A model generated the notes under the pieces. The model saw only the letters and a program-made list of their open reading frames with translations, ran no database searches and was not told where the DNA came from. 40,000 nucleotides of DNA from Granulicella rosea. GTDB taxonomy: Bacteria; Acidobacteriota; Terriglobia; Terriglobales; Acidobacteriaceae. The position numbers and the translations under genes were made by a program. Below are positions 6,750-35,342 of this stretch, piece by piece; the first letter of the stretch is position 1, and each line of letters starts with the position of its first letter. The DNA is taken from contig NZ_FZOU01000015.1 of NCBI RefSeq assembly GCF_900188085.1, positions 14,644 through 54,643 on the forward strand, written 5' to 3'.

Positions 6750-6959
6750 ATGAGAAAACCATCCCCGCGAAATGTGTCCATCTGGCTGCGATCGGCAGAG
6801 GTAGCGTCGGTCCTGGGAATCTCTCACCGTACTCTCATGCGTAAGCTCGCGGCAGGAAAGGTTTTAGAGCCCGCGCGCGATCCAGAAAACAATTACCGGC
6901 AATGGCGGCCGGAGGAAGTAAACGCCATTCAGCAGCAGCTAATGAGGGAAAAAGCATGA
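6750..6959 (+). CDS. Excisionase/MerR-type helix-turn-helix DNA-binding protein (HTH_17-like)
   Basis: The 69-aa product is MRKPSPRNVSIWLRSAEVASVLGISHRTLMRKLAAGKVLEPARDPENNYRQWRPEEVNAI... This follows the pattern (L)T..E.A..LG.S..T......G.......... .yr....v. Its stop overlaps the parA start (ATGA at 6956-6959). The start is uncertain: the tracked ORF begins at 6513, and ATG 6588 is an alternative. Confidence 0.6.
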   Translation: MRKPSPRNVSIWLRSAEVASVLGISHRTLMRKLAAGKVLEPARDPENNYRQWRPEEVNAIQQQLMREKA

Positions 6960-7738: not shown

Positions 7739-9140
7739 CTCACGCAGACAGAAGATCGAACCCCTGAACTGGACCGAGGCCGCACAGGCTCCGGCCCTGA
7801 AGGGGATGACTTCGTTTCTGGATGTGAGCGCAGAGGATGTCCGCAACGGAACCTTCCATAGCTTTGGCCCGCACTTTATGGGCAAGCATGTTTCATCCCC
7901 TAGAGATGAAACATCCCCAGGGGATGAAACATCAGTTGATCGTTCTGCATCCCGTCAGATCCGTTCGTCCAGTGCAGTCACTCCTATTACGGTCAGGAAG
8001 CTAACGACATCGACTGCTCCGCACGATCTGGCAGAGCCCGTATCGCGCGCAGGGGTGGAATTGTACCCAGGGGTGCTTTCATCCCCTGGGTATGAAACGT
8101 ATATAGGCTCTGATGAGCCTCTTGCCGCCGACCTCGCACCGCAGGTTCGAGATGGTTTGACCCCTGGGCGTGGCCGTTCCAAGGTAAGGCGTTGTGTGCT
8201 GGCTCAGGATGGCCACTCGCTCGGCGAGGAGGCGATATACCAGGTGATGTGGCGCGCCGGACGGCCTGAGAACAACGACCCGAACTGTGCCCGCACGATC
8301 CGGATCGGTGCGGCAGACATCGGCTGCAAGGTCAATATGGCGAAGAAGAATGTGCGCCAGAACATCTCCCGGCTCTTCGAGAAGCTAGCGATCGAGATTC
8401 TCGAAGACTTCGAGACCATGAGTTCGCAAGCCCGGCTCTACCGGGTCTACTCGTATAAGCAGATTCTGGAGCGCAGGCGTGCGGCTGGGCTGGACTACGT
8501 GCTGCGCAATAAGGGGGTAGTGTTCTGCACGGCGGATGGAGAAGAGGTTGTTTCATCCCCTGCCTACGTTTCATCCCCAGGGGATGAAACGTATATACGT
8601 CCTGCTGCTCCGAAGAAGCGCCGCGCTCCGCAGCCTCCCAACGCACTGGCTCCGCTTCATCCAGCCCTTCGGCAGGCAGCGCCGCAGGAGAGCTCCGAAA
8701 GCATGGACGTCGAGATCGTTTCGCAGGCGCTCAATCGGTACTGGCCTGTCGATCAGCCGGCGGCCGAGCAGCTGATTCGCGACTGTCGCCGCATCCGTCC
8801 CGATGCGACGGGGGAGGAGATATCCTTCTTTGTCCGTGAGAAGCTTGAGCTGGCGCGACAGAACCGGAATATCGCCAACCCGATTGGCCTGATCCTTGCG
8901 ACCGTGCCCCAGTCATTCGTAGGCGCCACCTTTCTCGGCTTTCGCGAGCGCATGGGGCGTCAGGCAATGCTCGCGGCGGAGGAGCAGCAGCGGAAGCAGC
9001 AGGAACAGGCGGAGCTTTCGACCTGGCTGCTGAACGAGCGAGAGCGCTACGAGACGATCGCGGGAGACCCGGATCGCTCGGACAGAGAACGGATCAACGC
9101 GGAGAATCGCTTGCGTCAGCTCGCGTCGTGGAACCTGTAA
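7719..9140 (+). CDS. ParA-coupled winged-helix DNA-binding protein (candidate centromere-binding or replication-initiator protein); function unknown
   Basis: The start ATG at 7719 overlaps the parA stop (7736-7738). The central part IRIGAADIGCKVNMAKKNVRQNISRLFEKLAIEILEDF...RLYRVYSYKQILERRR looks like a winged-helix/HTH domain. The C-terminus is a charged coiled-coil-like tail (EEQQRKQQEQAEL...). The N-terminal third is low complexity and carries three copies of the DNA motif, so the true start could lie further downstream. Confidence 0.6.
   Translation: MSQLPRSSRRQKIEPLNWTEAAQAPALKGMTSFLDVSAEDVRNGTFHSFGPHFMGKHVSSPRDETSPGDETSVDRSASRQIRSSSAVTPITVRKLTTSTAPHDLAEPVSRAGVELYPGVLSSPGYETYIGSDEPLAADLAPQVRDGLTPGRGRSKVRRCVLAQDGHSLGEEAIYQVMWRAGRPENNDPNCARTIRIGAADIGCKVNMAKKNVRQNISRLFEKLAIEILEDFETMSSQARLYRVYSYKQILERRRAAGLDYVLRNKGVVFCTADGEEVVSSPAYVSSPGDETYIRPAAPKKRRAPQPPNALAPLHPALRQAAPQESSESMDVEIVSQALNRYWPVDQPAAEQLIRDCRRIRPDATGEEISFFVREKLELARQNRNIANPIGLILATVPQSFVGATFLGFRERMGRQAMLAAEEQQRKQQEQAELSTWLLNERERYETIAGDPDRSDRERINAENRLRQLASWNL
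7888..7933. repeat. Motif cluster 3 (inside the WH-protein CDS)
   Basis: Sequence atGTTTCATCCCCtagaGATGAAACATCCCCAGGGGATGAAACatc, with GTTTCATCCCC at 7890-7900 and the palindrome ATCCCCAGGGGAT at 7913-7925. It encodes HVSSPRDETSPGDETS. Confidence 0.9.
8063..8107. repeat. Motif cluster 4 (inside the WH-protein CDS)
   Basis: Sequence gtaCCCAGGGGtgcTTTCATCCCCTGGGtATGAAACgtatata. It encodes YPGVLSSPGYETYI. Confidence 0.9.
8548..8598. repeat. Motif cluster 5 (inside the WH-protein CDS), with a perfect 23-nt palindrome at 8568-8590
   Basis: Sequence gttGTTTCATCCCCtgcctacGTTTCATCCCCAGGGGATGAAACgtatatac. GTTTCATCCCC-A-GGGGATGAAAC is a perfect 11-1-11 palindrome. The cluster encodes VVSSPAYVSSPGDETYIR. 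Confidence 0.9.
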
Positions 9141-10130: not shown

Positions 10131-10224
10131 CCCAAATGGCCGCCACGGGTCGTCGGAGTTCGCGCAAGACGGGATGCGGCATATCGTTTGGAGCGGTGAC
10201 GGTTGTGTCGCAAGGGAGATCGTA

Positions 10225-12105
10225 ATGAAGCGTAACGTTCCTGTCCTAGCTCTTTTCGTCCTGTGCGCTTCGAGTGGCGTTGTCCATGCACAGACGCTCC
10301 CTGCAGGCCCGGAGCCGCAGCTCCATCTCGCTTTGAACAATTTCTCGACGCCTGAAAGCCTTCATCTCACATCCTCCGATACGGAGCCGGCTGCCAGGGC
10401 AGTCGAGACATCGGAGGCGTTTCGCGCCGCGTCCTGGCATGAAGGCCTGTTCAAGAAGCGTCAGGGCTTCAAGTTCGCGGGCAACCGCAGCTCGGTCTAT
10501 CTCCCCGACGATAGCTGGATCTACCCCGAGATGACGCGGCTGTATTCGATGGGCTATGTCGACTCGATGTATCTAAGCATGCGGCCGTGGACGCGTCTCA
10601 GCCTGCTGCACATGTTGCAGGAGACGCAGGACAACATCATGAGCGGCTCGAACGAAGAGGCGAAGGAAATTCTCGCCGTCGTGCTCCGCGAGCTGACCGA
10701 CGAGGAGACCGTAAACGCCCATTCTGGCGGAACGATCTATGGCGTGGACTCCATGTACACGCGGATGATGGGCATCGCCGGCCCGTCGCTGCGCGACAGC
10801 TACAACCTGGGCCAGACGATCGTCAACGACTACGGCAGACCGTATCAGCCGGGATTCAACACCATCGATGGCGTCTCGACGACAGAAGAAAAGGGACGCT
10901 TCTCGCTTTACATCCGCGGCGAGTATCAGCATTCGCCCTCCGGTACGGGATACTCGCCCGAACTGGCGAACACACTCTCCATATTGGATATCGGTCTGCC
11001 GTATATCGCGCCCAACGCGCCGCAGGCCACCATTCCCGCCGGCCCGATCGCCGCGCAAAATCCCTTCCGGCTGGTGGAGGCGGTGCTCTCCTTTCACTTC
11101 CTCAATCACGAGATTTCGGGCGGCAAGACCGATTCATGGCTTGGCCCCGGTCAGGGCGGATCGCTCGCATGGAGCAACAATGCGGAGAACATCTACTCCT
11201 TCCGCATCGATCGCGTGGAGCCGTTGTACATCCCGCTACTCTCCCGCGTGCTCGGCCCGGTTCGATACAACTTCATGTACGGAAGCCTGAAGGGACACAC
11301 CGCGCCGAACAGCCCGTATGTTCACGAGGAGGCGTTCTCCTTCCGGCCAACCAAGAACTTCGAGTTTGCGTTCGAACGTACGGTGATCTTCGGCGGGGAA
11401 GGCCATACGCCGGTGACCCTGCATACCTTCCTGCGAAGCTTCTTTTCGCTCTCCGACGTGGAAGACGACCCCGGCGTGAAGCTGATTGGACAGGATCCCG
11501 GCGCCCGCTTCAGCGATTTCAGCTTCTCCTGGCGGCTGCCGTTTATCAGCAAGTACGTCACCCTGTACGCCGACTCCGAGTGCCATGACGACGTGACGCC
11601 CATCAGCGCACCACGCCGCGCGGCTTACCGGCCGGGATTCGTCATCTCGCAGATTCCGGGTGCGAGGAAGATGGAGTTGCGGGTCGAAGGTCTGGATTCG
11701 AACCAGCCGACAACCCGCAGCAACCTCGGCCACTTCACCTACTTCGAAGGCTTCCAGCCGCAGGGTTACACGAACAAGGGATTTATCATGGGCGACTGGC
11801 TCGGTCGCCAGGCGGTCGGCGAACAGAGCTGGCTGACCTACCATCTCTCGGGCAACGAGCTGGTCCAGTTGGAGTATGTGCACAAGAAGAATGCGCACGA
11901 CTTCACCGAGGGCGGAACGACGCAGAACCAGTTCAAACTGAGTGTGGTGAAGCGGTTCAAGAAGGATCTCGAGCTGAACGCCTGGGTACAGCAGGAGCGC
12001 TTCAAGGCGCCTCTGTATCTTCCCGGCGCGCGGAACAATACGACGGCGGTGGTTCAGTTGACGTACTTCCCGAAGCTTCGCCTGGCGGGGCTGGGCAAGG
12101 ACTAG
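10225..12105 (+). CDS. wzi: Capsule assembly Wzi family outer-membrane protein (putative)
   Basis: Start ATG at 10225 with GGGAGA 6-11 nt upstream. Signal peptide MKRNVPVLALFVLCASSGVVHA-QT. The N-terminal segment SWIYPEMTRLYSMGYVDSMYLSMRPWTRLSLLHMLQE fits the Wzi-family helical bundle motif. The remaining part is rich in alternating aromatic/Gly beta-strand patterns typical of a large beta-barrel. Confidence 0.55.
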   Translation: MKRNVPVLALFVLCASSGVVHAQTLPAGPEPQLHLALNNFSTPESLHLTSSDTEPAARAVETSEAFRAASWHEGLFKKRQGFKFAGNRSSVYLPDDSWIYPEMTRLYSMGYVDSMYLSMRPWTRLSLLHMLQETQDNIMSGSNEEAKEILAVVLRELTDEETVNAHSGGTIYGVDSMYTRMMGIAGPSLRDSYNLGQTIVNDYGRPYQPGFNTIDGVSTTEEKGRFSLYIRGEYQHSPSGTGYSPELANTLSILDIGLPYIAPNAPQATIPAGPIAAQNPFRLVEAVLSFHFLNHEISGGKTDSWLGPGQGGSLAWSNNAENIYSFRIDRVEPLYIPLLSRVLGPVRYNFMYGSLKGHTAPNSPYVHEEAFSFRPTKNFEFAFERTVIFGGEGHTPVTLHTFLRSFFSLSDVEDDPGVKLIGQDPGARFSDFSFSWRLPFISKYVTLYADSECHDDVTPISAPRRAAYRPGFVISQIPGARKMELRVEGLDSNQPTTRSNLGHFTYFEGFQPQGYTNKGFIMGDWLGRQAVGEQSWLTYHLSGNELVQLEYVHKKNAHDFTEGGTTQNQFKLSVVKRFKKDLELNAWVQQERFKAPLYLPGARNNTTAVVQLTYFPKLRLAGLGKD

Positions 12106-12177
12106 CGATTACTTCGTTGTCTGAGCGCCTGCCACGAACCCGCTCTAAAGTATCGGACGCCGCAGGGTAAATCGTTG

Positions 12178-12220
12178 CCCACCTGACCGAAGCGCGAATC
12201 TTCGGCTTCGCTCAGGTGGG
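12178..12220. terminator. Bidirectional hairpin between the convergent wzi and giant-lipoprotein genes
   Basis: The arms cccacctgaccgaagc (12178-12193) and gcttcgctcaggtggg (12205-12220) form a 16-bp stem with one mismatch. No clean U-tract is present. Confidence 0.55.
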
Positions 12221-12250
12221 CGGATTGCTGCCAACGAACGGCTCACCAAC

Positions 12251-15200
12251 TTAGTGAGTGATCTTGCGAATCCGCTGGTTGCCGGAGTCCGAGAAGTAGA
12301 TGTTGCCCTTGCTGTCGGTCACGATGCCGGTGGACACGTAGTAGTTGAAGTTGACCTGCCCGGCCGACGCCAGGCCGCCATCGCCGGTGAAGCCCAATAC
12401 GCCGTTGCCGATGATGGTGTTAATGATTCCTGCCTGCGAGACGACGCGAATCCGATCGTCGCCGGTGGCTATATAGACGTTGCCCGCACTGTCGACGGCA
12501 AGGCCGTAGGGCTGATAGATGGTTGCTGACGCACCGGTGGCGCTGCCTCCGTCTCCGGAGAAATAGCATGGATAGACGGTGTAGTAAGAGGGTGAGCCAG
12601 CCAGCATTGTGACGATACCCGCCGGATTCACCTCCGCTACGTGGCAACGCTCGTCGCCGACGTACAGGTTTCCAGAGGCATCGATTGCCACGGAGAAGAT
12701 TTTGTTGAATGCCATGTTGGTTGCGAGGCCGCCGTAACCCCAGTCATTCGAGCCGCCGCCGACGACGGTGTTGATGACGCCGCCCGGGGACAGCCTGCGG
12801 ATACGGTTGTTGGTGTAGTCGGCGATGTAGAGGTTGCCGGCTCTGTCGACCGCGAGGCCAACGGGGTTGGCCAGCATCGCGCTGGTCCCCTGGCCGCCGT
12901 CGCCGCTGAAGCCCGATATGCCCGTGCCTGCGACGGTGACGATGATGCCATTGGGTGAGATCCTGCGGATGACGTTGTTACCCGTGTCGGCGATGAAGAT
13001 GTTGCCGGTGAGATCGACCGCGACCGATCTTGGCGCGTTGAGCCATGCCGCCGTCGCCTGGCCGCCATCGCCGTAATAGCCCGTTGAGCCGTTGCCCGCC
13101 ACGGTGGTGATGATGCCCGCCGGGGTGACCATGCGGATGCGATTGTTCGCCGTGTCGGCGATGTAGAGATTGCCGCTGCCATCCATGGCGACTCCGGTCG
13201 GATTGTTGACCGAGGCGTTGATGCCGGGGCCACCGTCTCCGCCATAGGTGGCGGCGCCGTTGCCGATGACGGTGTTGATGATCCCGGCGGCGGGGTTGAT
13301 GTAGTACCCGGCGGTTGCGGTCAGGCTGGCGGTGTAGCTTGCAGAGAGCGTGATGGCGTTGATGGTCTCGGAGCTCGAGACGGTGACTGGCCCGGTGTAG
13401 AGGGTGGAGGCAGAGGTGGGATTGGACCCATCGGTGGTGTAGTAGATGGGGGTTCCCGAGGTGGTCGAGATCGTCACCGTCTGGGCCGCGGTGAAGGTTC
13501 CGGCTGCAGGCGAGAAGGTCGGGGTTGCGGCGGCTGGTAGAAGGGTGACGCTATAAGCGGCGCTGCTGACAGAGCTTGCGGCATAGCCGCCGCCCGAGGC
13601 GAAGGCCTTGACGGTCTGCGAGGCAGAGATGGCGATGGGTGCGGTGTAGAGGGTAGACGCCGCGGTCGGCGTGGAGCCGTCGATGGTGTAGTAGATCGGC
13701 ACGCCGGGCGAGCTGGTCGAGAGGGAAAGATACTGCGTGGAGGTGTAACTTCCGGAGGCGAGCGAGAAGATCGGCGCGGAGGCGGTGAAGGCGTTCGAGT
13801 AGCTCACCTTACGGACGCGCTGATTGTAGGTGTCGGCGAGGTAAAGATTGCCAGTCTTGTCGACCCACATCCCGGTGGGGTTCAGGGTGGAGAAGTAAAG
13901 AGACGCGGTGGTCGCGTTGACTCCGTCTCCGCTGTAGCCCGAGCCGCCGTTTCCTGCAACCGTGGAGATGATGCCGCCCGTAGTTACCTTACGGATACGC
14001 TCGTTGCCGCTATCGACGATGTAGAGATTGCCGGCGGTGTCGGCGAAGATGCCATTCGGAAGATTGAGGGTTGCACTGGCGGCGGCGGCTCCATCGCCGG
14101 AGAAGCTCTTCGTGCCGGTGCCGGCGAAGGTGGAGATGATGCCAGCGGCGTTGACCTTGCGAATGCGGTTATTGCCGATGTCGGCGATGTAGACGTTGCC
14201 GCTGGCGTCTGCCGCGATGCCTCCGACGTTGGCCAGCGAGGCGCTGGTTCCGATGGCTCCATCTCCGCTGAAGCCCGTTGTGCCGTTGCCCGCGATGGTG
14301 GAGATGATGCCGGAGGTGTCGATCTTGCGGACCCGGTAGGTGCCTGCGTCGGCGATATAGAGGTTGCCATTGCTGTCGAACGCGAGGGCCTGAGGGTATG
14401 CTAGCTCGGCGCTGGTCGCTGCGCCACCGTCGCCGGTGAAGCCTCGGGTTCCGTTGCCTGCGATGGTGGAGATGATGCCTGCGGGGGTGACCTTGCGAAC
14501 GCGGTTGTTGGTGCTGTCCGCGATATACACGTTGCCGCTGCTATCGACGGCAACGCCTAAAGCAGCGCCAATCTGCGCGGCGCTGGCCGCTCCGCCGTCT
14601 CCGCTGAATCCGGAGACGCCTGTGCCGGCGAAGGTGGAGATGACGCCTGCCGGCGTGACTTTACGGATGCGGTAGTTGTTCCAGTCGTCGATATAGACGT
14701 TGCCGCTGTTGTCTACGGCCACCGCATACGGGGAATAAAGCTGGGCGCTGGTGGCGGCGATGCCGTCGCCGTTATAGCCCGAGGTTCCAGTGCCTGCGAT
14801 GGTGGTGATGATGCCGATGCCCTGGTTGATGTAGTAGCCGCCGCTCGCAACGGAGCTGGCGACATAGCCGGTAGGCGCGGCAAAGGCGTTGATCGTCTCG
14901 GAGGCCGCAACTGTGATGGCGCCAGTGTAGAGCGTGGATGAGGTGGTGGGGGTCGAGCCGTCGGTGGTGTAGTAGATGGGGCCGCCGCTGCTGGAGGTAA
15001 GGGTGACCGTCTGTCCCGCAGCATAGTTGCCCGGCGCGGGCGAGAAGGTGGGTGTGCTGGCGACCTGCGGGAGCGAGATGACGTAGTTCGCGATGGCGAC
15101 TGAGCTGTTGTTCAGCAGACTGGTTTGGACGGCGATTGCCTTCAGGGTCTCGGATGTACGGACCGTGACGGGAGCGCTGTACAGAGAAGACGTCGTTGTC

Positions 15201-18200
15201 GGCGTCGTGCCGTCGGTGGTGTAGTAAATCGACGCGCCCGTTGTCGCGGTGGTGATGGCGACGACCTGGACCGAGGTGTAGATTCCGGAGGCGACGGAGA
15301 AGGTCGGCGTTGCGGCATATGCGTTGGAGTAGGTTACCTTGCGGACGCGCGAGTTGGCCCAATCGGTGAGGTAGAGGTTGCCTATGCTATCGGCGAAGAT
15401 GCCGGTAGGGTTGTTCAACTCTGCGGTGACCGCATTGATGCCATCGCTGTTGTAGCCTGCCGTACCGTTTCCGGCGACGGTGGTGATGATGCCGGAGGGA
15501 TCGACCTTGCGGAAGCGCTGGGCGTCGGCGAAGTAGAAGTTGCCGGCCGTATCGACGTTCACGGTAAATGGCTGGTTCAGGGTCGCGCTGGTGGCGGCGA
15601 ATCCGTCGCCGGAGAAGCCTTGGACACCAGTGCCCGCGACGGTGGAGATGACGCCGGCGGAGTTCACCTTGCGGATGCGGTTATTGCTTTCGTCCGCGAT
15701 GTAGATATTGCCGGCGCCATCGACCGCGACGCCCGAGGGGTAGGACAGTTGGGCGCTCGTGGCCGGTCCGCCGTCTCCGCTGAAGCCCGCCGTGCCGTTG
15801 CCGGCGACGGTAGAGATGATGCCTGCGGAGTTGACCTTGCGGATCTTGTTGTTGCCGATGTCGGCGATGTAGAGGTTTCCGCTGCCATCGACCGCGACAT
15901 ACAGACGGTTGGACAAGGTGGCGCTGGTGGCCAGTCCGCCGTCGCCGCTGGAGCCCTGGGCGCCTGTGCCTGCGACGGTGGTGATGTTGCCTGTCGTATC
16001 GACCTTGCGAATGCGCAGGTTTAAGCTGTCTCCTATATAAAGGTTGCCGGCGCTGTCGATGGCCAGGCCTTCCGGATAGTTGAGATACGCGGTGGTTGCT
16101 GGGCCTCCGTCGCCCCCATAGGCAAGATGGCCTGGGCTGCCCGCGATGATGGAGATGACGCCTGCGGGGGTGACCTTGCGAACGCAACTGCAGGAGCCCG
16201 CGGCATTGGTGATGTACAGGTTGCCGCTGCGGTCCATGACGGTGGTGTAGGGGAAGGCGAGCTCCGCGCCGGTCGCCTGGCTGCCATCGCCTGTGTATCC
16301 GGAGATTCCATCGCCGGCAACAGTGGAGATGATACCGATGCCCTGGTTGATGAAGTAACCCGCGCTGACGACGGAGCTGCTGGTATAGCCCGTGGCGGTG
16401 GCAATGGCGTTGATCGTCTCGGGCGTCGAGACCGTAATGGGACCGGTGTAGAGCGTGGACGAGGTGGTAGGCGTCGAGCCATCCGTCGTGTAATAGACGG
16501 CGCCGCTGATGGGGGCGGTAATGGAGACCGTCTGGGCGATGGAGTAGTTGCCTGGTGCAGGCGAAAAGGTGACCGCGCCGGGGTAGGGCAGCGATCCGGT
16601 GATCGTGTAGGCGGCGCTGGCGACGGGGCTCGATGTGTAACCGGCGCCGGTGGCGATGGCGTTGACGGTCTGCGAGGCGGCGACGGTGATGGGCGCGGTG
16701 TAGATATTGGACGAGGTGGTGGGCGTGGAGCCGTCGGTCGTGTAGTAGATCGACGTATCGGGAGAGCTGGTCGAGATGGAGACGGTCTGAGCGGCGCTGT
16801 AGCTTCCGGCAGCCGGTGAGAAGACCGGAGTGGCGGCGGCGAGCCCGGTCGAGTAGGTGATCTTGCGGACGCGCTGATTGTAGGTGTCGGCGAGGTAGAG
16901 ATTGCCGAAGCTGTCGATCGTCAGCGTATCTATTGCATAGTAAACAAAGCTGAACGAAGCGGCCAGTGGACTGCCTCCGTCGCCGCCGTATGATGGGGTG
17001 CCGCCTTTTCCGGCGACGGTGGAGATGATGCCAGCAGGTGTGACCTTGCGGATGCGATCGTTGTCGGTGTCGACGATATAGAGATTTCCGGCCGTATCGA
17101 AGGCGATGCCACTTGGATTGTTGAGCAAAGCGGCGCTGGCGGGGCCGCCGTCACCGCCGAATCCCCCCGCTAAACCAGGCGTGCCGGCGCCTACGGCGGT
17201 GGTCAGATAGCCGGTGGTATCTACCTTGAGAATCCGGTTGTAGGCCGGGTCGGCGATGTAGAGATTGCCGCTGGTGTCTAAGGCGATGCCACCAATCTGA
17301 TAGGACAACTCGGCGCTGATCGCCGGTCCATCGCCGGAGTAGCCTGCCGTGCCATTGCCCGCAATGAGGGTGAGCCCATGGGTAATGTGGTCCATCTTGT
17401 AAACTCGGCTACCGATGCCGCTGAACTGGCCTTGGCCTGGGTAGGTGAAGTAAATATTGCCTGCCTGATCGAATATGAAGGACTGGCTGGCCCCCGCGAC
17501 AACGGTGGAGATAACACCGTCCGGCGCGATCCTGTGAATAGATCCGTCCGAGAAATAGACGTTGCCACTGTTATCGACGACCACGCCTCCTGGGTATCCG
17601 ATCTGTGCGAGCGTGGCCGGTCCACCCTCGCCGGTGCTTCCGGAGACGCCCGTGCCGGCGATAGTGGAGATGATGCCTGCCGGAGTGACCTTGCGAATGC
17701 GGTAATTGACCGAATCAGCAATGTAGAGATTGCCGCTGCTGTCAACCGCAGTCGCCGTTGGAGTGGAGAGCGGTGTGCTGGTGGCGGGGACGCCATCGCC
17801 GTAGTATCCCGTCTCACCATCGCCGGCGATGGTGTTGATGACGCCGACGCCCTGGTTTAAGAAGTATCCGCCGGCCGTGACCGTACTGCTGGCATAGCCG
17901 GAGGGGAAGGAGATGGCGCTGATTGTCTCGGAGGTCTGGACGGTGATCGGACCGGTGTAGAGCGTGGACGAGGTGGTGGGGGCGGAGCCGTCGGTGGTGT
18001 AGTAGATGGCTCCTGTGGTGGAGGAGATCGTCACCGTCTGTCCTGCGGCGTAGTTGCCGGGCGCGGGCGAGAGGATGGGCGCCGAGGCGACCGGAATCTG
18101 AATGACATAGGCCGCAGAGGCGACGGCGCTGTTGTTGCTGTAGCCGGGCAAGACCGCAATGGCCTTGATGGTCTGCGAGGTGGTGAGAGTGATGGGGCCG

Positions 18201-19800
18201 GTATAGACCGCTGAGGTCGTATAAGCCAGGGTCGCGGTCGGAAGGGAGCCGTCGGTGGTGTAGTGGATCGTTGCGCCCGGGGTCGTGGTGGAGAGGCTTA
18301 TAACCTGGGCCGAGGTGTAGGTTCCGGCCGCGACCGAGAAGGTGGGGGTGGCGGCGGCATTTGGATTGAAGTAGGTAACCTTACGAATTCGATAGTTAGC
18401 CGTGTCGGCGATATAAAGATTGCCAGTGCTGTCAACGCCTACTCCCTGGGGAACATTCAATTGGGCGGTCGTCGCGCTGATGAAGTCGCCGTTGTAGCCT
18501 GCGGCTCCGGTTCCGGCGACGGTTGTGATGACGCCGGACGAGTCGATTCTGCGGACCCGCTGATTGTCCATGAAGTAGAGGTTGCCGGCTGCGTCGGAGC
18601 TGATGTAGGTCGGCCCGTAGAGAGTGGCGCTGAGGGCTGGCCCTCCGTCGCCGGTAGAGCCTCGAACACCCGTGCCAGCGATTGTGGTGATGATGCCGTT
18701 CGTGTCGACCTTGCGGATTCTATAGTTGGTCGAGTCGGCAATGTACATATTGCCGGCTGCGTCGAACGCAACGCTGTTGGGGGTTAACCCGGCGCTGGTA
18801 GCCGGTCCTCCATCTCCGCTGAAGGCCGCCGAGCCATTGCCCACGACGGTGGTGATGATGCCCGAGGCGTCGACCTTGCGAACCCGGTAGTTTCCGGTAT
18901 CAGCGATATAGGCAAGGCCTGTGTTATCTAAGCCGACGGTAAAAGGGGTGGTGAATTTCGCGGCAGTTGCGAGCCCTCCGTCTCCGCTGAAGCCCACGCC
19001 GCCAAAACCCGCGATGGTGGAGATGGTGCCCGCCGTGGTGAACTTGCGAACGAGGATATCGTTCTGATCCGCAATATAGAGGTTGCCGCCCTTGTCGAAG
19101 GCAATGTTGGATGGGCTGCTAAGGGCAGCGGGAATTGTCAGGGTGGAGATGACGCCTGTGGGGGTAATCTTCCGAATGATGTTGCCGCTGACGAAATAGA
19201 GGTTGCCGCTGCCGTCGACCGCTGGGGCTATGCCGTAGATCTCTGCATTGCTGGCCTGGGCTCCGTCGCCCGTGTCTCCATCGATTCCGCCCGCGTAGGT
19301 GGAGATGATGCCGCTGCCCTGGTTGATGAAGTAGCCCCCGCTGACGATGGAGCTGTTGACGTAGCCGGTAGCAGTTGCGATGGCGCTGATGGTCTCGGAT
19401 GCCGGGACGGAGATAGGCGCGGTGTAGCGTGTGGACGAGGTGGTGGGCGTCGAGCCGTCCGTGGTGTAGTAGATGGCTCCGCTGGTGGGGGCGGACAGGG
19501 TCACCGTTTGGGCCGTGGCGTAGTCGCCGGGCATCGGGGAGAAGGTTACCGCGCCGGGGTAGGTCACAGGCGTGATGATGGTGTACGCCGCGCTGGCGAT
19601 AGCGCTGGGCGCGCGGTTCAGGTAGGCGACGGCCGTGAGGGTTTCGGACGCAGCGATGGCGATGGCGCCGCCGGAGTAGACGGAGGAGAAGATCGTCGGC
19701 GTTGTGCCATTGGTGGTGTAGTAGACCGTCGCGCCGGTTGTGGTCTCGGCGATGGTCGCCGTCTGGGCGCCGGTGTAAGTTCCGGCCGCGAGCGAGAAGG
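12251..19800 (-). repeat. Five tandem intragenic super-repeats with a period of about 1.5 kb
   Basis: The YYTTDG-encoding word (plus-strand cc(g/a)tcggtggtgtagtagat and variants) recurs in pairs near 13440/13685, 14970/15222, 16490/16745, 18000/18260 and 19465/19725. Confidence 0.85.
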
Positions 19801-20797
19801 TCGGCGTCGCGGGCATGGGGAGGATCGGCAGGGTCCAGTCGGGATTCGGCGCTGGAAGGGCCGGCTGGAAGGGTGCGTTGGCGGTGCTCAGGTTAAACAG
19901 ATTGGCGACGTTCAGGGTCGGATTCTTGAGGATATTGAGGATGGCGCCGACGGTTTCGGTGGGCGCCGTGCCATTGGCAGGCGTCGTGTATTGCAGCAAC
20001 ATGCCGCAGTTGCTGCCGTCCTTGGCGACGCCGCCGGTCGAATTGATGCAGGCTGCAAGGATGTTCGCCAGGGTGTCGATCTCGACGCTGGAGGCGTAGT
20101 ATCCGGCGGGCAGCGTCGTGCCGGGAGCTGTGCCGCTGGCCACGTTCACGTACTCGGCGGCCAGCGAGAAGGCTGATGCCAGCGATGTTGCATCGCTGGT
20201 TCCGGAGCCGATGGCCGCATACGAGGCCATATAAGGATAGAGTGCGGCGGTCGAGCCGACGGTGGTGACCTCGTTGAGCGTGATGAAAGTAGCCGGCGTA
20301 AGCGAGCCGCAGGGTCCGAGCGCGGCCAGCAGGATCAGGTCGGAGTTGTTGACGGGGCTGGCGAAACCGGGATTGCCGCCCGTGCTGACGAGGTAGACCT
20401 CGGTCGAGGCGCTGGGGCAGGTGTAGTCGCCGGTGATGCCGAACGTGCCTACGGGCAGGCTGTTGAGCTGGTTTCCGGCGTTGGCGTTACTGTTGGACGC
20501 GTTGCCGGAGCCGTCGCTGGTGGTGACGGTCTTGGTCAGCAACGCCTGCGACGGGGAGCCGTCTCCGGTTGCGCCCACCGCATAAAGCTGGATAGTGGCA
20601 CCGCTGACGGGCTGCTGCCCGCCATGCACCAGACCCTTTATCGCATACCCGGTGGTGCTCACGGGAGTTGGCGTCGGGGTGTGGGTGCAACCGGTAAGGG
20701 CGAGGCAGGCGGCAAACGCGACGGAGAAAACTGCCGCCGTCGACGTTTTTACGCTGGACGCGGTAGACGCAAAGGCGGACAGGCGGAGCTTGAACAT
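12251..20797 (-). CDS. Giant surface lipoprotein of about 2850 aa: N-terminal unique domain plus 5 x [two chitobiase/beta-hexosaminidase-C-type (CHB_HEX_C / Fn3-associated) Ig-like domains + NHL-repeat beta-propeller]
   Basis: Probable start ATG at 20797 (MFKLRLSAF..., GAGGA 5-9 nt upstream); the tracked start at 20815 is TTG. Lipobox AACLALTG-C. Ten copies of TPTFSPAAG.Y..AQTV.(I/L)S....GA.IYYTTDGS.PT.SS..YT.PI.V..SET(I/L).A(I/F)A. There are dozens of NHL units of the form P.G(V/I)A(V/F)D..GN(L/I)YIAD..N.RIRKV...G.I.T(V/I)AG.G..G..GDGG.AT.A.L. Confidence 0.9.
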   Translation of the reverse strand: MFKLRLSAFASTASSVKTSTAAVFSVAFAACLALTGCTHTPTPTPVSTTGYAIKGLVHGGQQPVSGATIQLYAVGATGDGSPSQALLTKTVTTSDGSGNASNSNANAGNQLNSLPVGTFGITGDYTCPSASTEVYLVSTGGNPGFASPVNNSDLILLAALGPCGSLTPATFITLNEVTTVGSTAALYPYMASYAAIGSGTSDATSLASAFSLAAEYVNVASGTAPGTTLPAGYYASSVEIDTLANILAACINSTGGVAKDGSNCGMLLQYTTPANGTAPTETVGAILNILKNPTLNVANLFNLSTANAPFQPALPAPNPDWTLPILPMPATPTFSLAAGTYTGAQTATIAETTTGATVYYTTNGTTPTIFSSVYSGGAIAIAASETLTAVAYLNRAPSAIASAAYTIITPVTYPGAVTFSPMPGDYATAQTVTLSAPTSGAIYYTTDGSTPTTSSTRYTAPISVPASETISAIATATGYVNSSIVSGGYFINQGSGIISTYAGGIDGDTGDGAQASNAEIYGIAPAVDGSGNLYFVSGNIIRKITPTGVISTLTIPAALSSPSNIAFDKGGNLYIADQNDILVRKFTTAGTISTIAGFGGVGFSGDGGLATAAKFTTPFTVGLDNTGLAYIADTGNYRVRKVDASGIITTVVGNGSAAFSGDGGPATSAGLTPNSVAFDAAGNMYIADSTNYRIRKVDTNGIITTIAGTGVRGSTGDGGPALSATLYGPTYISSDAAGNLYFMDNQRVRRIDSSGVITTVAGTGAAGYNGDFISATTAQLNVPQGVGVDSTGNLYIADTANYRIRKVTYFNPNAAATPTFSVAAGTYTSAQVISLSTTTPGATIHYTTDGSLPTATLAYTTSAVYTGPITLTTSQTIKAIAVLPGYSNNSAVASAAYVIQIPVASAPILSPAPGNYAAGQTVTISSTTGAIYYTTDGSAPTTSSTLYTGPITVQTSETISAISFPSGYASSTVTAGGYFLNQGVGVINTIAGDGETGYYGDGVPATSTPLSTPTATAVDSSGNLYIADSVNYRIRKVTPAGIISTIAGTGVSGSTGEGGPATLAQIGYPGGVVVDNSGNVYFSDGSIHRIAPDGVISTVVAGASQSFIFDQAGNIYFTYPGQGQFSGIGSRVYKMDHITHGLTLIAGNGTAGYSGDGPAISAELSYQIGGIALDTSGNLYIADPAYNRILKVDTTGYLTTAVGAGTPGLAGGFGGDGGPASAALLNNPSGIAFDTAGNLYIVDTDNDRIRKVTPAGIISTVAGKGGTPSYGGDGGSPLAASFSFVYYAIDTLTIDSFGNLYLADTYNQRVRKITYSTGLAAATPVFSPAAGSYSAAQTVSISTSSPDTSIYYTTDGSTPTTSSNIYTAPITVAASQTVNAIATGAGYTSSPVASAAYTITGSLPYPGAVTFSPAPGNYSIAQTVSITAPISGAVYYTTDGSTPTTSSTLYTGPITVSTPETINAIATATGYTSSSVVSAGYFINQGIGIISTVAGDGISGYTGDGSQATGAELAFPYTTVMDRSGNLYITNAAGSCSCVRKVTPAGVISIIAGSPGHLAYGGDGGPATTAYLNYPEGLAIDSAGNLYIGDSLNLRIRKVDTTGNITTVAGTGAQGSSGDGGLATSATLSNRLYVAVDGSGNLYIADIGNNKIRKVNSAGIISTVAGNGTAGFSGDGGPATSAQLSYPSGVAVDGAGNIYIADESNNRIRKVNSAGVISTVAGTGVQGFSGDGFAATSATLNQPFTVNVDTAGNFYFADAQRFRKVDPSGIITTVAGNGTAGYNSDGINAVTAELNNPTGIFADSIGNLYLTDWANSRVRKVTYSNAYAATPTFSVASGIYTSVQVVAITTATTGASIYYTTDGTTPTTTSSLYSAPVTVRTSETLKAIAVQTSLLNNSSVAIANYVISLPQVASTPTFSPAPGNYAAGQTVTLTSSSGGPIYYTTDGSTPTTSSTLYTGAITVAASETINAFAAPTGYVASSVASGGYYINQGIGIITTIAGTGTSGYNGDGIAATSAQLYSPYAVAVDNSGNVYIDDWNNYRIRKVTPAGVISTFAGTGVSGFSGDGGAASAAQIGAALGVAVDSSGNVYIADSTNNRVRKVTPAGIISTIAGNGTRGFTGDGGAATSAELAYPQALAFDSNGNLYIADAGTYRVRKIDTSGIISTIAGNGTTGFSGDGAIGTSASLANVGGIAADASGNVYIADIGNNRIRKVNAAGIISTFAGTGTKSFSGDGAAAASATLNLPNGIFADTAGNLYIVDSGNERIRKVTTGGIISTVAGNGGSGYSGDGVNATTASLYFSTLNPTGMWVDKTGNLYLADTYNQRVRKVSYSNAFTASAPIFSLASGSYTSTQYLSLSTSSPGVPIYYTIDGSTPTAASTLYTAPIAISASQTVKAFASGGGYAASSVSSAAYSVTLLPAAATPTFSPAAGTFTAAQTVTISTTSGTPIYYTTDGSNPTSASTLYTGPVTVSSSETINAITLSASYTASLTATAGYYINPAAGIINTVIGNGAATYGGDGGPGINASVNNPTGVAMDGSGNLYIADTANNRIRMVTPAGIITTVAGNGSTGYYGDGGQATAAWLNAPRSVAVDLTGNIFIADTGNNVIRRISPNGIIVTVAGTGISGFSGDGGQGTSAMLANPVGLAVDRAGNLYIADYTNNRIRRLSPGGVINTVVGGGSNDWGYGGLATNMAFNKIFSVAIDASGNLYVGDERCHVAEVNPAGIVTMLAGSPSYYTVYPCYFSGDGGSATGASATIYQPYGLAVDSAGNVYIATGDDRIRVVSQAGIINTIIGNGVLGFTGDGGLASAGQVNFNYYVSTGIVTDSKGNIYFSDSGNQRIRKITH

Positions 20798-20877
20798 GGA
20801 AATCCTCGTGTGCAAGCTGTTCTACCCATCGCCTTGTGTAAGCGTGGGGATTGTTTGCAGGTATGCCGAGAATTTAC

Positions 20878-21693
20878 TTACTCGTTCATGCGTTTTACAC
20901 GGTCGGCGCCGGTGATGACCTTAGCCGCCATCGAGCTCGCGATGCGCCGCAGAACGCTGAAGGCCACGCGAGGAAGACCCATCTTCAGGTTACGGCGTTG
21001 TGCTCTTGCGGCCTGCAGAATGAGCTTGGTTTTATTGCGGCCGCTGGTGGCTTCCGCTGTAAATTCATTCTCGCTGAAAAGAATATCAGCCGACTGTAAC
21101 TTCAGCGTACGCGACATGCGAGTGACGACGTCGTAGTCGGCGCAGATCGTATAAGTCATATCGTAAGGAAACTTCGCATGCTCGCGGCGATCGAAGATGG
21201 TGGCTTGGTGCAGGCCGGGCTGGCCGTGCCAGAGATAGCTGGGATCCTTCACCTTGCGCTTCACCTGCATCACGCCGAAGCTCATCAGCGAGCTGCAGAA
21301 GAGAATTCCCGGCCTGTCTTTGACGAGGACTTCTTTCGCCTCGGCGAGGGCAGTGGTGGTCGCAAGGCGGTCGCCGCTGTTCAGCAAGATGACATACTCG
21401 CCGGTCGCGCGAGCCAGCCCCTTGTTCATGGCGTCGTAGATGCCTTTGTCGCGCTCGCTGACAACGGTTACGCGCGGGTCGTCCCAGGTTCGCGCGAATT
21501 CAGGTGAGCCATCGGTCGATCCGCCGTCGATGACGAGCCACTCCCAGTCCGCGCATGTCTGCCGGCTGAGAGACTCCCTGGTCCGCTTGAGACCGTCCAG
21601 GTTGTTCCAGACCACGGTGATTACGGAAAAATAAGGGGACGATGAGGAGGGGGGCGCCGGCTGGGAGGGAAGTGTGGGGGTTGGATCGATCAT
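20878..21693 (-). CDS. Family 2 glycosyltransferase, WcaE-like
   Basis: FSVITVVWNNLDGLKRTRESLSRQTCADWEWLVIDGGSTDGS...DKGIYDAMNKGLARATGEYVILLNSGD follows the GT2 DxD-type fold. As I recall it, this closely tracks E. coli WcaE (SIITVAFRNLEGI...FEWIVVDGGSNDGT...DNGIYDAMNKGI...FLNSGD). Confidence 0.85.
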   Translation of the reverse strand: MIDPTPTLPSQPAPPSSSSPYFSVITVVWNNLDGLKRTRESLSRQTCADWEWLVIDGGSTDGSPEFARTWDDPRVTVVSERDKGIYDAMNKGLARATGEYVILLNSGDRLATTTALAEAKEVLVKDRPGILFCSSLMSFGVMQVKRKVKDPSYLWHGQPGLHQATIFDRREHAKFPYDMTYTICADYDVVTRMSRTLKLQSADILFSENEFTAEATSGRNKTKLILQAARAQRRNLKMGLPRVAFSVLRRIASSMAAKVITGADRVKRMNE

Positions 21694-21768: not shown

Positions 21769-23025
21769 TCAGATCTTGTTTGCGAGGGAAAGGTCGATGG
21801 CGCCAGGGTTCGTTTGTGACTGCCAGCTCTGTTTCACCCGTGAGGGCCTCGAAAGAGTCCATGCCGGGTTGTTCGATTTGAAGCGCATGGAGACAATGAA
21901 GATAGCGATCAGCAGGGAAGATTCGATACTGAGAAAGCTGCTGGAGGCGCCTGTCGCCAGAATAAGATAACTTCCGGCCAGAGCCATGGACGTATCTCTG
22001 CGTCGCAAGCATCGAATGATGAACAGAACAACCATCGTAAAAGGCACCAGCGCCATGAAGCCGAAATACATGACGAACTCGTAGACGCCGTTGGTGATCT
22101 TGGCCTCACGGAAGTCCAGGAGCTCTGCCGAAGAAGCATTTCCAACGACCGAGGCATTGGCTCCAATCGGGACGCCCATGGGGTAGTGCGGCAGCAGTCC
22201 TTTCAGCACGAACAAAGGCAGGACGGTACGCACCAGGGTCGAGTTGTCGCTTTCGCCGCCTACGCCGACCTCCAGCCGCTTTTCAAGCAGCGGCCATGCG
22301 ATGGCAATGATCAGAAGAGCCGCGATGCCGAGTCCGACGATCGATTTCTTCATACCAGCCGCATAAAAGACCATTGCGGTTACGACGAGAATGATGATGC
22401 TGAACGAGCTGCTGAAGATGAAGGCCATCGCGGTATAGGCAATAAAAGTGTAAGGCTTCTTATCGCGGACCAGCAGCATCATGGCGAGCGTACTGGTGAC
22501 GCGACCGAACATGGAGGGCTCGTAGTAAGAGCCCACGGCGCGCGTTGCATCCGAGGCTAATACATTGGTATAGCCTTCGAAGAAGTTATTGATGGAGATA
22601 GGTTGAATTAAGGTGTATCCGATGGTGGTGCCGAGAAACGTAAGACCTATGTATTGCAAAGCGCCCAATGCAAGCAGGATCCACAATACTTTATCGGGAC
22701 GCATATCGCGAATCACCGAGCGCCGCTGAAAGGCGCACCAGATCACAACGACAGAAACAAGCCAAAGCGCATAAGATGAAAGAAAGCGCGTGATTCCGAG
22801 CGAATAAGTGCTTCTGAACGCCACATGTGCTAAATAGACCAGAATAGGGTAGAGCGCCATCGAGGCAAGCTCGAGCGTATAGCGTAAATTCTTTCCGTTG
22901 GCGATGAAGGTGGCAACGATGAAGATGGGCACATATAGGCTACCCACGGTCACGGCATAGGTTCCCACCATAAGGATCTTGGCATAGAGCAAAAAAACGA
23001 CGAGCGAGAGTCCTACTTTACCCAT
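21769..23025 (-). CDS. Polysaccharide polymerase, Wzy/WcaD-like polytopic membrane protein (putative)
   Basis: 418-aa protein with about 10-12 predicted TM segments and no soluble domain. GC content is visibly lower than the flanks. It occupies the slot between the WcaC-like and WcaE-like genes, which WcaD occupies in the E. coli colanic acid operon. Confidence 0.55.
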   Translation of the reverse strand: MGKVGLSLVVFLLYAKILMVGTYAVTVGSLYVPIFIVATFIANGKNLRYTLELASMALYPILVYLAHVAFRSTYSLGITRFLSSYALWLVSVVVIWCAFQRRSVIRDMRPDKVLWILLALGALQYIGLTFLGTTIGYTLIQPISINNFFEGYTNVLASDATRAVGSYYEPSMFGRVTSTLAMMLLVRDKKPYTFIAYTAMAFIFSSSFSIIILVVTAMVFYAAGMKKSIVGLGIAALLIIAIAWPLLEKRLEVGVGGESDNSTLVRTVLPLFVLKGLLPHYPMGVPIGANASVVGNASSAELLDFREAKITNGVYEFVMYFGFMALVPFTMVVLFIIRCLRRRDTSMALAGSYLILATGASSSFLSIESSLLIAIFIVSMRFKSNNPAWTLSRPSRVKQSWQSQTNPGAIDLSLANKI

Positions 23026-23091: not shown

Positions 23092-24297
23092 TTACGAAGC
23101 GGTGGGAAGCATCTCGCGATAGAGCTGGATATGGGTGTCCGCCATGGTTTTGCCGGAGAAGATGGCGAGTGCGCGGCGGCTGAGTTCGATGGAATCCATA
23201 CCACCATAGAGTTCTTCGATTTTGTCGTTGGCGATGACGTCGGCCATAGCCTGCCGGTCGGGCAGCGTGCGTCCGCCTACCTTGGCGAGAATCTCATCAG
23301 TTGCCGGGGAGTTGTATGCCAGCACATGACATCCGGCGGTCAGCGCCTCGATGACTGTAAGGGGTGCATTGTCCGATGTGGAGCAGAAGACCAGGGCGCG
23401 TGCGCGAAGCAGGATTTTGACCATCTCTTGACGTGCCCGCACTTCGCCCAACTCTTCGACATTGGAGTAATGGAATGGATTGTTACGGCCCGCCAGGATC
23501 AATGGAATCTCGGGCCGATTCGCGAGCTTCTCCACGAGGGCGTGATCGACCTTGACGACGGAGTTCAGGTCGGCGGCGGAAAACAGGAAGCCTCGGCGCG
23601 CGGCGACGGTATCCCGATTCAGAGTCTCTTCTTCCAGCGCAGCTTCAAACTCGGCGTCGATGGAGTTCGGCACTACCTGGATCGACGTATTGGGGAGAAC
23701 GGACCGGTAGTTGCCTGCCAGATGTTCCGCTGGACAGAGGAAGCGCGGGGCAGGAAGACGTGCGATTGCTGCCAGTTTTTGCTTCCGGCGCAAACGCGAT
23801 ATATCGAATACTGTCTTGAGATCGTTGAAGCGCAGTTGACCGCACTCGCCACATCCACGTTCCCATCCGGTGCATCCCGCAAGCAGCCCGCAACGTCCGG
23901 TAATGAACCACCAGTCATGTGCCGTCAGTACGATAGGTTTGCGATGGCGGACGACGAGATCGACGAGATGGCTCCAGTTCAAATAATAATGATGCGGTGC
24001 GTGAACGTGGACGATGTCGGCTGCTTGGATGGCGCTCTCCAGCAGAGCCGGACTGCTGGTGACCATGTCGTATCCGAGCAGGGTGTGGCTTATATAGTTG
24101 GTCATCACAGTGGCTTTGGTTGCCAGTCGCTGGATGTTGGGGTCGCCTGCTACGGCGGGATCGTTGGTGACGCCGGAGCCGTATCCATAGAGTAGGCGGC
24201 TATCGACGCCAGCCCCCCGTAGCCGCTTGTGAAGGTCCAGCGCGACTCGTCCGGCTCCTCCCTGAGAAGCACGGATGTTTAACAGCAATATCTTCAC
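23092..24297 (-). CDS. GT-B (family 4) glycosyltransferase, WcaC-like
   Basis: MKILLLNIRASQGGAGRVALDLHKRL... and AHDWWFITGRCGLLAGCTGWERGCGECG parallel, as I recall it, E. coli WcaC (MNILQFNVRLAEGGAAGVALDLHQR..., LHDHWSVTGRCAFTDGCEGWKTGCQKCP). Confidence 0.8.
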   Translation of the reverse strand: MKILLLNIRASQGGAGRVALDLHKRLRGAGVDSRLLYGYGSGVTNDPAVAGDPNIQRLATKATVMTNYISHTLLGYDMVTSSPALLESAIQAADIVHVHAPHHYYLNWSHLVDLVVRHRKPIVLTAHDWWFITGRCGLLAGCTGWERGCGECGQLRFNDLKTVFDISRLRRKQKLAAIARLPAPRFLCPAEHLAGNYRSVLPNTSIQVVPNSIDAEFEAALEEETLNRDTVAARRGFLFSAADLNSVVKVDHALVEKLANRPEIPLILAGRNNPFHYSNVEELGEVRARQEMVKILLRARALVFCSTSDNAPLTVIEALTAGCHVLAYNSPATDEILAKVGGRTLPDRQAMADVIANDKIEELYGGMDSIELSRRALAIFSGKTMADTHIQLYREMLPTAS

Positions 24298-24454
24298 CAG
24301 AAGCTCCTGTGCGATCTCGTCTCAACAGTTTACAGGAAGATGCAGACAGAGCGAGGCTTCCTCGCGAGGGTCGTGGAGCCCCCTGAAGGCGGCGGGTCGG
24401 GGGTGGTTCGGTCTGGTATATTCTAAGAGATCAAGGAAGAGCACCCCAGACCAT

Positions 24455-29340: not shown

Positions 29341-29451
29341 CGTGCTGCACCTCATGGTCCTTCTCAGTGTAATCTCGCGTGGCGATGAGACCGGGTTTCG
29401 CCGGTATGTCTTTGAGACGCAGGCGTTAAGCCCGTTTGGTATATTTGTACT

Positions 29452-35160: not shown

Positions 35161-35322
35161 AACGCACTCTCCTGCCCGAGATTCAAATTCAGATGATTTG
35201 TACTAGGTTACCTTGTTCTGAGATTTTGGTGCATATAGAAACGCACATCTAAATCCCAACCAGCCGGAGATGTCAACCGGCACAACACTCGGTACTATAA
35301 ACCAATCCACCTCTTTCCACAC

Positions 35323-35342
35323 GCTCCAATCGAGATTGGAGC
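35323..35342. promoter_or_regulatory. 9-2-9 perfect palindrome in the gmd / wcaF-like divergent control region
   Basis: The palindrome gctccaatc-ga-gattggagc sits in the AT-richer 358-bp region between the divergent start codons (35160 and 35519). Confidence 0.4.

Follow-up and report, generated by a model that had tools for sequence, protein, structure and literature searches.

The 40,000-nucleotide stretch of Granulicella rosea DNA analysed here (the window; assembly GCF_900188085.1, contig NZ_FZOU01000015.1, positions 14,644 to 54,643) carries, on its minus strand and inside a Wzx/Wzy-type polysaccharide locus, an 8.5-kb gene for a giant repetitive lipoprotein. The product is probably a lipid-anchored, non-catalytic, multivalent binding scaffold that belongs to a large family of acidobacterial lipoproteins, possibly co-expressed with exopolysaccharide (EPS) genes in this organism and not a conserved component of EPS systems. 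Four things were observed directly for this reading: the anatomy of the protein, its family membership, the absence of catalytic domains, and a gene context that is not conserved.

The minus-strand open reading frame (ORF) extends over 12251..20815, and translation from its in-frame ATG at 20797 gives a protein of 2848 amino acids (aa). The same protein, with 100% identity over 2848 aa, is the NCBI Granulicella rosea entry P0121, automatically named 'Sugar lactone lactonase YvrE'. Its N-terminus, MFKLRLSAFASTASSVKTSTAAVFSVAFAACLALTG-C, consists of a basic start, a hydrophobic stretch and an L-T-G-C lipobox, and MFKLR...VFSVAFAACLALTG-C agrees with the bacterial lipoprotein (Sec/SPII) pattern with lipobox [LVI][ASTVI][GAS]C, which predicts a lipoprotein. 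The C-terminus ends in ...SGNQRIRKITH, where no PEP-CTERM/exosortase sorting signal was found, neither a PEP motif nor a transmembrane/basic tail being present. The giant ORF with a lipobox, as described in the original prediction, was thereby confirmed. The features of the gene are listed below.

12251..20797, minus strand: giant lipoprotein gene, 2848 aa plus stop (ORF list and translation; NCBI protein P0121)
20803..20807, minus strand: Shine-Dalgarno sequence GAGGA, 5 nt before the ATG (direct sequence reading)
20687..20797, minus strand: signal peptide and lipobox L-T-G-C at aa 34-37, with Cys37 as the predicted lipidated residue (sequence)
20654..20686, minus strand: Thr/Pro-rich tether THTPTPTPVST, directly after the lipobox (sequence)
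19814..20653, minus strand: conserved N-terminal family module, aa ~49-328 (homologue searches, alignment A1, AlphaFold 2)
18344..19801, minus strand: super-module 1, aa 333-818, two CHB_HEX_C Ig-like domains and an NHL propeller (Pfam and module comparison)
16826..18343, minus strand: super-module 2, aa 819-1324 (Pfam and module comparison)
15305..16825, minus strand: super-module 3, aa 1325-1831 (AlphaFold 2, pLDDT 89.5; best PDB match 9ifo, E 1e-31)
13772..15304, minus strand: super-module 4, aa 1832-2342 (Pfam and module comparison)
12254..13771, minus strand: super-module 5, aa 2343-2848, the most divergent, without sorting tail (sequence, module comparison)
20798..20877, minus strand: 80-nt gap between the stop of the upstream GT2 glycosyltransferase gene and the giant gene start, without terminator-like site (scan)
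12178..12221, no strand assigned: GC-rich hairpin between the giant gene and the convergent wzi (fold of 12160-12250)

Pfam searches found ten CHB_HEX_C_1/Fn3_assoc stretches (E 4e-170) and abundant NHL/TEN_NHL matches (E 1e-174). CHB_HEX_C_1 and Fn3_assoc (PF13290 and PF13287) scored 552 and 414 bits, above the curated cut-off, and correspond to beta-sandwiches in the structural model, while NHL (PF01436) reached 332 bits against a cut-off of 20 and TEN_NHL (PF25021) 581 bits, with six blades per propeller. These domains are arranged in five blocks of about 500 aa starting at aa 333, 819, 1325, 1832 and 2343, each with two CHB_HEX_C Ig-like domains followed by a six-bladed NHL propeller. At the DNA level the blocks recur with a period of about 1.5 kb (spacings of 1530, 1521, 1509 and 1467 nt), and the blades with one of 168 nt. 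No catalytic, toxin, RHS or sorting domain was found with Pfam or NCBIfam, the latter contributing sub-threshold propeller families only. The AlphaFold 2 model of module 3 (pLDDT 89.5), built from an alignment of ten modules, shows two beta-sandwiches and then a six-bladed propeller of four-stranded blades, closed by its own N-terminal strand. Ala, Gly, Thr and Ser make up 50% of the residues of the giant protein, and its charge is low. The block plan, the lack of catalytic, toxin or sorting domains and the 1.5-kb periodicity had all been put forward from the sequence alone and were reproduced here, and the structure prediction proposed for one super-module gave the expected folds.

The nearest solved structures by sequence and fold are the NHL propeller of a teneurin-like protein (TLP; 9pt5/9ifo), SOQ1, NHLRC2, and the PknD sensor (1rwi) with its 'Pizza' derivatives; a catalytic role is not known for any of the propeller domains matched. 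The best match, the NHL propeller of the Bacillus inaquosorum TLP (PDB 9ifo/9pt5), shares a 56-residue blade type with the giant protein and gives a phmmer E of 8e-136 over the repeated blades; in Foldseek, 9ifo aligns over about 497 columns with 36% identity (E 1e-31), including the Ig-like domain ahead of the propeller. In Gram-negative bacteria, TLPs too are predicted to be lipoproteins (Nat Commun 2026, PMC13018210). The FN-plug, YD/RHS shell, TIP domain and C-terminal toxin of TLPs are absent from the giant protein, however, which has five propellers in place of one. A TLP or RHS-YD polymorphic toxin was rejected, as only the NHL part and no RHS/YD, TIP or toxin family was found with Pfam and NCBIfam. 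The sensor propeller of Mycobacterium tuberculosis PknD (1rwi) and the 'Pizza' proteins are likewise six-bladed, highly symmetric, extracytoplasmic and without known catalytic role, but PknD has a single propeller, joined to a kinase by a transmembrane helix, and its blades are shorter (~42 aa). Regarding the deposited name, no full-length SGL domain of the SMP-30/gluconolactonase/YvrE type was found in the giant protein with Pfam: the SGL score of 75.7 bits is a sum with 0 individually significant stretches, and its best stretch covers profile positions 138-220 of 246. Since this score adds up blade-level matches, the name 'Sugar lactone lactonase YvrE' is unsupported, and the NCBI/UniRef annotation is likely an over-annotation derived from summed partial SGL blade matches.

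Six proteins show the full plan of N-terminal module plus CHB/NHL modules (P0138, P0122, P0124, P0127, P0199 and P0126; 1595-2595 aa), and the number and layout of the modules vary among them, with 2-5 propellers and 1-4 Ig-like domains per propeller. Within the giant protein, the super-modules share 43-59% identity in protein and 63-77% in DNA, the longest exact repeat between them is 32 bp, and the modules form a star-like, long-branched tree in which the within-protein distances are as large as those to the modules of other proteins. The duplications are therefore old. Recent expansion by recombination, judged from the sequences, is unlikely and was rejected as an explanation of the repeats on the shape of the module tree. 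The idea that the periodicity makes the gene a candidate for recombinational expansion and contraction is therefore weak: module number does vary among homologues, but no sign of ongoing change was seen between modules of this divergence.

The region ahead of the first super-module, which the original prediction had taken to be unique, turned out to belong to a large family that lacks a domain model. A search with aa 1-328 gave 370 relatives with 43-61% identity, typically 300-570 aa long among those listed, which carry diverse C-terminal domains (GDSL esterase, PLD, NHL, CHB_HEX_C, ASH-type Ig); one of them is named 'prealbumin-like fold domain-containing protein [Granulicella sp. S156]' in NCBI. 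With a 28-member profile, 4738 of 1.84 billion cluster representatives (50%-identity clusters) were retrieved at E<=1e-3 and 2421 at E<=1e-30. The giant protein matches this profile with an E of 2.5e-122 through a module of ~275-290 aa just after the lipobox, which is 45-60% identical to hundreds of proteins. Family members nearly always begin the domain within their first ~60 residues, and a lipobox-like motif is present in 101 of the 124 listed representatives with an initial Met. The conserved motifs are GGQQPV, GGNPG, NEVTTV and CINS.GG, together with four Cys that are invariant in alignment A1 (Cys127, 163, 250 and 264 of the giant protein). These four residues suggest two disulfides and hence, as far as the alignment can indicate, an extracytoplasmic location. 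The AlphaFold 2 model of the module (pLDDT 91.5) consists of a beta-sandwich followed by a helical subdomain; Foldseek found no PDB match below E 0.01, with a weak resemblance to transthyretin/CnaB-like sandwiches, and Pfam, NCBIfam and PDB sequence searches gave no match.

In 48 sampled members, the cargo behind the N-terminal module is an Ig-like array in 15, CHB_HEX_C in 11 and NHL in 6, with GDSL, GH44, arabinofuranosidase, beta-helix and RHS as rarer types. Given this diversity, the module looks like a generic anchor or display element of Acidobacteriaceae lipoproteins, which is its putative function. A genome scan (one genome per species), for which the pattern was a 7-sequence N-terminal alignment because the 28-sequence alignment was too diverse for pattern scanning, located 79 loci, all of them in Acidobacteriaceae-type genomes. 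Some genomes have three or four such loci (e.g., four in OY843766.1), and paralogues occur in tandem, with 136 genes across 77 loci. Tandem genes are often two or three in number and encode proteins of ~620-700 aa (e.g., L031:7842-13687, L016:5371-12547, L029:8404-13607). Two of the loci, L009 and L063, lie on CAVUSA01 contigs of a metagenome-assembled genome labelled 'uncultured Gammaproteobacteria bacterium', which is likely a mislabelled or contaminated bin.

In the window, the giant gene follows a minus-strand series of a GT4 glycosyltransferase, a putative Wzy-type polymerase and a GT2 glycosyltransferase. The operon-like position proposed for it was confirmed: the 80-bp gap (20798-20877) after the GT2 gene contains no terminator- or promoter-like site according to the scan, and its size is close to that of the spacers within the minus-strand series ahead of it (66 and 75 bp). 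At the other end, the 91-nt stretch 12160-12250, which contains the hairpin, folds with a free energy (dG) of -46.8 kcal/mol (z -5.1, 0/200 shuffles as stable), in agreement with the strong hairpin said to be shared with the convergent wzi; it is a probable bidirectional terminator, although it has no clear U-run. The 80-nt gap also folds (dG -21.6, z -2.8, 1/200 shuffles equally stable), pairing AAAUUCUCG, just past the GT2 stop, with CGAGGAUUU, which holds the Shine-Dalgarno sequence. Such a fold over the ribosome-binding site might reflect translational coupling or control, or have arisen by chance.

The genomic context of the homologues was then compared. None of the six same-plan homologues (0/6), four of which have short flanks, has wzi, wza, wzc or wzy nearby; their neighbours include a ROK kinase with an M48 peptidase, a heparinase-like protein, rpoD, GcpE and ribosomal protein S21. 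When eighteen proteins of the window locus were searched with phmmer against the 79 loci, Wzi, Wza, Wzc, Wzy, Wzx and GT4 were found within 10 kb of the N-terminal-module genes in 0/79, with sporadic acyltransferase, MBOAT and dehydrogenase matches. In control loci, this search did detect Wzi, Wzc, Wza and UDP-glucose dehydrogenase (UGDH), with E values from 1e-22 to 1e-263. Clustering of all neighbouring genes around the 79 loci revealed no universal neighbour. A TonB-dependent-type outer-membrane barrel as obligatory partner was rejected, being present within 10 kb in 12/79 loci and adjacent in 6/79.

The orthologous polysaccharide loci were compared through one cassette locus (L086) and three Wzi loci (L100-L102). 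In the metagenome collection, the upstream GT2 has a single close relative, at 62% identity, which lies in L086; this locus keeps the GT4-Wzy-GT2 order (E 7e-160, 2e-135 and 3e-108, respectively). The cassette is continued there by ordinary genes of sugar biosynthesis, encoding a GT2, FdtA/hexapeptide protein, DegT aminotransferase, flippase, further GT2 and GDSL protein, and no N-terminal-module, CHB or propeller gene lies beside it. Among Acidobacteriaceae, orthologues of Wzi (57-69% identity) occur widely. In Granulicella arctica and Acidobacteriaceae GCA_002197545.1, the genes after Wzi are a convergent epimerase and UGDH and then a divergent Wzc-Wza-GT4-GT4 series, while the third locus is arranged differently; in none of the three was an N-terminal-module, CHB or propeller gene found. 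In G. rosea, and only there among the loci compared, the giant gene marks the point where a movable glycosyltransferase cassette meets the conserved wzi. No publication on giant NHL proteins of Acidobacteria, or on a Granulicella EPS locus with such a gene, was found in literature searches. Since 0/6 homologues and 0/79 family loci lie near Wzi, Wza, Wzc or Wzy genes and the orthologous loci lack the gene, the adjacency to EPS genes looks like a local accident of gene order.

In the scaffold reading, the localisation, the binding role and the independence from EPS are inferred. The protein would be exported via Sec/SPII as a lipoprotein, and the N-terminal module (a transthyretin-like sandwich and a helical subdomain, probably with two disulfides) would sit just past the lipid anchor and bear interchangeable cargo. 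Anchor and module together would fix the protein to an envelope membrane, probably the outer membrane, with the Ig-like pairs acting as stalks that string the five propellers into a long multivalent scaffold whose ligand would probably be a polymer. As the last gene of the GT4-Wzy-GT2 series, the giant gene may be read through from it. The surface glycan-binding proteins (SGBPs) of the SusE/F type in Bacteroidota offer a comparable design, also being lipid-anchored, non-catalytic and multi-domain, with beta-sandwiches and several binding modules on a stalk. Their folds are nevertheless different, and SusC/D pairing is not the rule in the giant family, where the TonB-dependent-type barrel is adjacent in only the 6/79 loci mentioned.

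In the original prediction, the gene was proposed to encode a dedicated, undescribed accessory of Wzx/Wzy capsule or EPS, co-transcribed with GT4-Wzy-GT2, whose product would anchor, organise or cross-link the polymer alongside Wzi. Wzi is an outer-membrane lectin that anchors the K30-type capsule in E. coli, and an analogous role, a surface protein holding polymer, would be played by the product of its convergent neighbour. There is no sequence or fold kinship between the two, and Wzi is conserved at Acidobacteriaceae EPS loci while the giant family is not. The operon-like 80-bp spacing without terminator, the whole Wzx/Wzy locus around the gene (Wzi, Wzc, Wza, Wzx, glycosyltransferases, WcaM-like protein, acyltransferases), the carbohydrate-associated Ig-like domains and the 8/79 family loci beside exosortase XrtJ speak for such an accessory. 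It was not sustained by the comparative data and is unlikely: 0/6 homologues and 0/79 loci are near wzi, wza, wzc or wzy in a search whose positive control worked, the orthologous glycosyltransferase cassette and Wzi loci lack the giant gene, and the C-terminal tail of the paralogues linked to XrtJ is missing from the giant protein. The survey for recurrent wzy/wzi linkage returned homologues in unrelated contexts, the outcome that the prediction itself had named as speaking against it. Some points nevertheless weigh against a scaffold independent of EPS. The flanks were short or ended by the contig in four of the six homologue loci (L003, L006, L103, L104), and single-sequence phmmer may miss divergent glycosyltransferases, one GT2 in L005 being seen only at E 4e-4. 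CHB_HEX_C domains occur mostly in carbohydrate-active or carbohydrate-binding proteins. Furthermore, the operon position in G. rosea (80-bp gap, no terminator, own Shine-Dalgarno sequence, matching spacing) makes an EPS role particular to this species possible, if improbable.

That the propellers are lactonases or lyases, which would make the protein a multi-catalytic enzyme modifying EPS or plant polymers, was judged very unlikely. The summed SGL score of 75.7 bits, weak Pfam matches of Vgb_lyase, Phytase-like and strictosidine-synthase type, and relatives of the N-terminal family that bear real enzymes (GDSL, GH44, arabinofuranosidase, PLD) agree with it, but no SGL stretch is individually significant (the best covers 138-220 of 246), the top relatives in sequence and fold are non-catalytic NHL propellers, and the blades share one consensus, a pattern that would be typical of binding propellers. 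A structural envelope or matrix protein, such as an S-layer-like coat, an aggregation factor or an adhesin for soil or plant polymers with partners unrelated to the cell's own EPS, has a small chance of being the better description. It would account for the size, the repetitiveness and the low-charge composition rich in Ala/Gly/Thr/Ser (50%); the Ig-like plus propeller plan is that of large bacterial adhesins, Ig-like arrays dominate the family cargo, and many genomes hold paralogue arrays. However, this proposal overlaps with the lipid-anchored scaffold, differing in the ligand only, and the lipobox is the sole secretion or sorting signal found.

As a capsule component the giant protein carries little weight, as the comparative evidence opposes a conserved EPS role. 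It is already deposited in NCBI and belongs to a known kind, the giant repetitive Ig/propeller surface proteins that are common in soil Acidobacteria. The analysis corrects the misleading database name 'lactonase' and illustrates how little can be concluded about a gene's function from its neighbours where a polysaccharide locus is variable. The N-terminal module family and its occasional pairing with XrtJ are the more interesting by-product: a very large lipoprotein domain family without a model is exposed in an abundant, poorly studied soil lineage, and its characterisation could explain how enzymes and binding proteins are displayed on the surface of these bacteria. More speculatively, the module could be an undescribed anchoring or display domain of Acidobacteriaceae for diverse cargo, with the GAAAPVVTPL-tailed NHL paralogues perhaps XrtJ substrates and the giant protein the largest display product, which may hold the cell's own EPS or external polymers; this wider proposal is tentative.

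XrtJ belongs to the exosortases and is an enzyme class tied to EPS producers. It adjoins tandem paralogues of ~610-670 aa with N-terminal module and NHL in 8/79 loci (L016, L024, L028, L029, L031, L036, L042 and L074; e.g., L024:12741-14372 and L029:6273-8030), and the three members scanned scored 429-593 bits with the exosortase J model TIGR04199 against a cut-off of 200. Many of the XrtJ-linked paralogues end in ...(V/I)GAAAPV(V/K)TPL...(R)P, without the transmembrane/basic end of the PEP-CTERM type. Seven of the nine genes with a GAAAPVVTPL-type tail lie in XrtJ loci, and this tail may be a sorting signal of XrtJ. The G. rosea giant protein does not have it.

The other genes of the polysaccharide locus in the window are listed below.

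10174..12105, plus strand: Wzi-family gene, convergent with the giant gene (Pfam Caps_assemb_Wzi, E 9e-110)
20878..21693, minus strand: GT2 glycosyltransferase, weakly wcaE-like (Pfam Glycos_transf_2; TIGR04009 134.8 bits against a cut-off of 369.2)
21769..23025, minus strand: putative Wzy-type polymerase with at least 8 hydrophobic segments (no hidden Markov model (HMM) match; L086 orthologue, E 2e-135)
23092..24297, minus strand: GT4 glycosyltransferase, first gene of the minus-strand series (L086 orthologue, E 7e-160)
24275-26749, plus strand: Wzc-like protein (domain searches)
26571-27821, plus strand: Wza-like protein, inside the ORF (Poly_export domain from aa 145)
27832-29466, minus strand: weakly WcaM-like protein, 544 aa (66 bits against a cut-off of ~800)
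29452-31374, plus strand: AT3-SGNH acyltransferase (domain searches)
31212-32768, plus strand: Wzx flippase (domain searches)
35270-36097, plus strand: hexapeptide transferase (domain searches)
36204-37445, plus strand: second GT4 (domain searches)
4399-5775, plus strand: UGDH (domain searches)
674-2179, minus strand: MBOAT, 501 aa (domain searches)

The minus-strand series had been read as WcaC-, WcaD- and WcaE-like. Its order of GT4, multi-transmembrane protein and GT2 is indeed that of wcaC-wcaD-wcaE in the colanic-acid genes of E. coli, and wcaE is the best NCBIfam match of the GT2. The equivalog cut-offs for wcaC, wcaD and wcaE were, however, not reached by these neighbours (wcaE 134.8 against 369.2; Wzy candidate without NCBIfam or any other HMM match), and neither was that for WcaM (66 against ~800), which leaves a resemblance rather than an identity. 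Colanic-acid clusters are not known to contain a lipoprotein of this kind. The protein encoded at 27832-29466 combines the weak WcaM similarity with similarity to a pectate-lyase-like beta-helix; as a candidate enzyme for polymer processing in the locus, it is more conventional than the giant gene.

The Wzi ORF has 643 aa, with the Pfam Wzi domain from aa 202, while the NCBI product has 590 aa; Wzi proteins of Acidobacteriaceae seem to carry an extra 100-200 aa at the N-terminus. With the listed starts, the GT4 (minus) and Wzc-like (plus) genes overlap head to head by 23 bp (24275-24297), and Wzc shares 179 bp with the Wza ORF (26571-26749), whose Poly_export domain begins late. The true starts are probably further in, leaving what is probably a short divergent promoter region between the minus-strand glycosyltransferase series and wzc. 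Between UGDH and Wzi, a ParA/AAA_31-type ATPase (278 aa, also BcsQ-like; 6902-7738, plus strand) overlaps by 20 bp a 473-aa protein (7719-9140, plus strand) that has no Pfam or NCBIfam match, and the two (6902-9140) may provide the locus with a second pair of the kinase/co-polymerase-like type. Finally, the MBOAT and a 385-aa protein without Pfam match (together 674-3308, minus strand) resemble an O-acylation pair of the AlgI/AlgJ type. Homologues of each lie ~8-10 kb from N-terminal-module genes in two unrelated loci (L023:128-1702 and L051:19894-20805), which is probably a coincidence.

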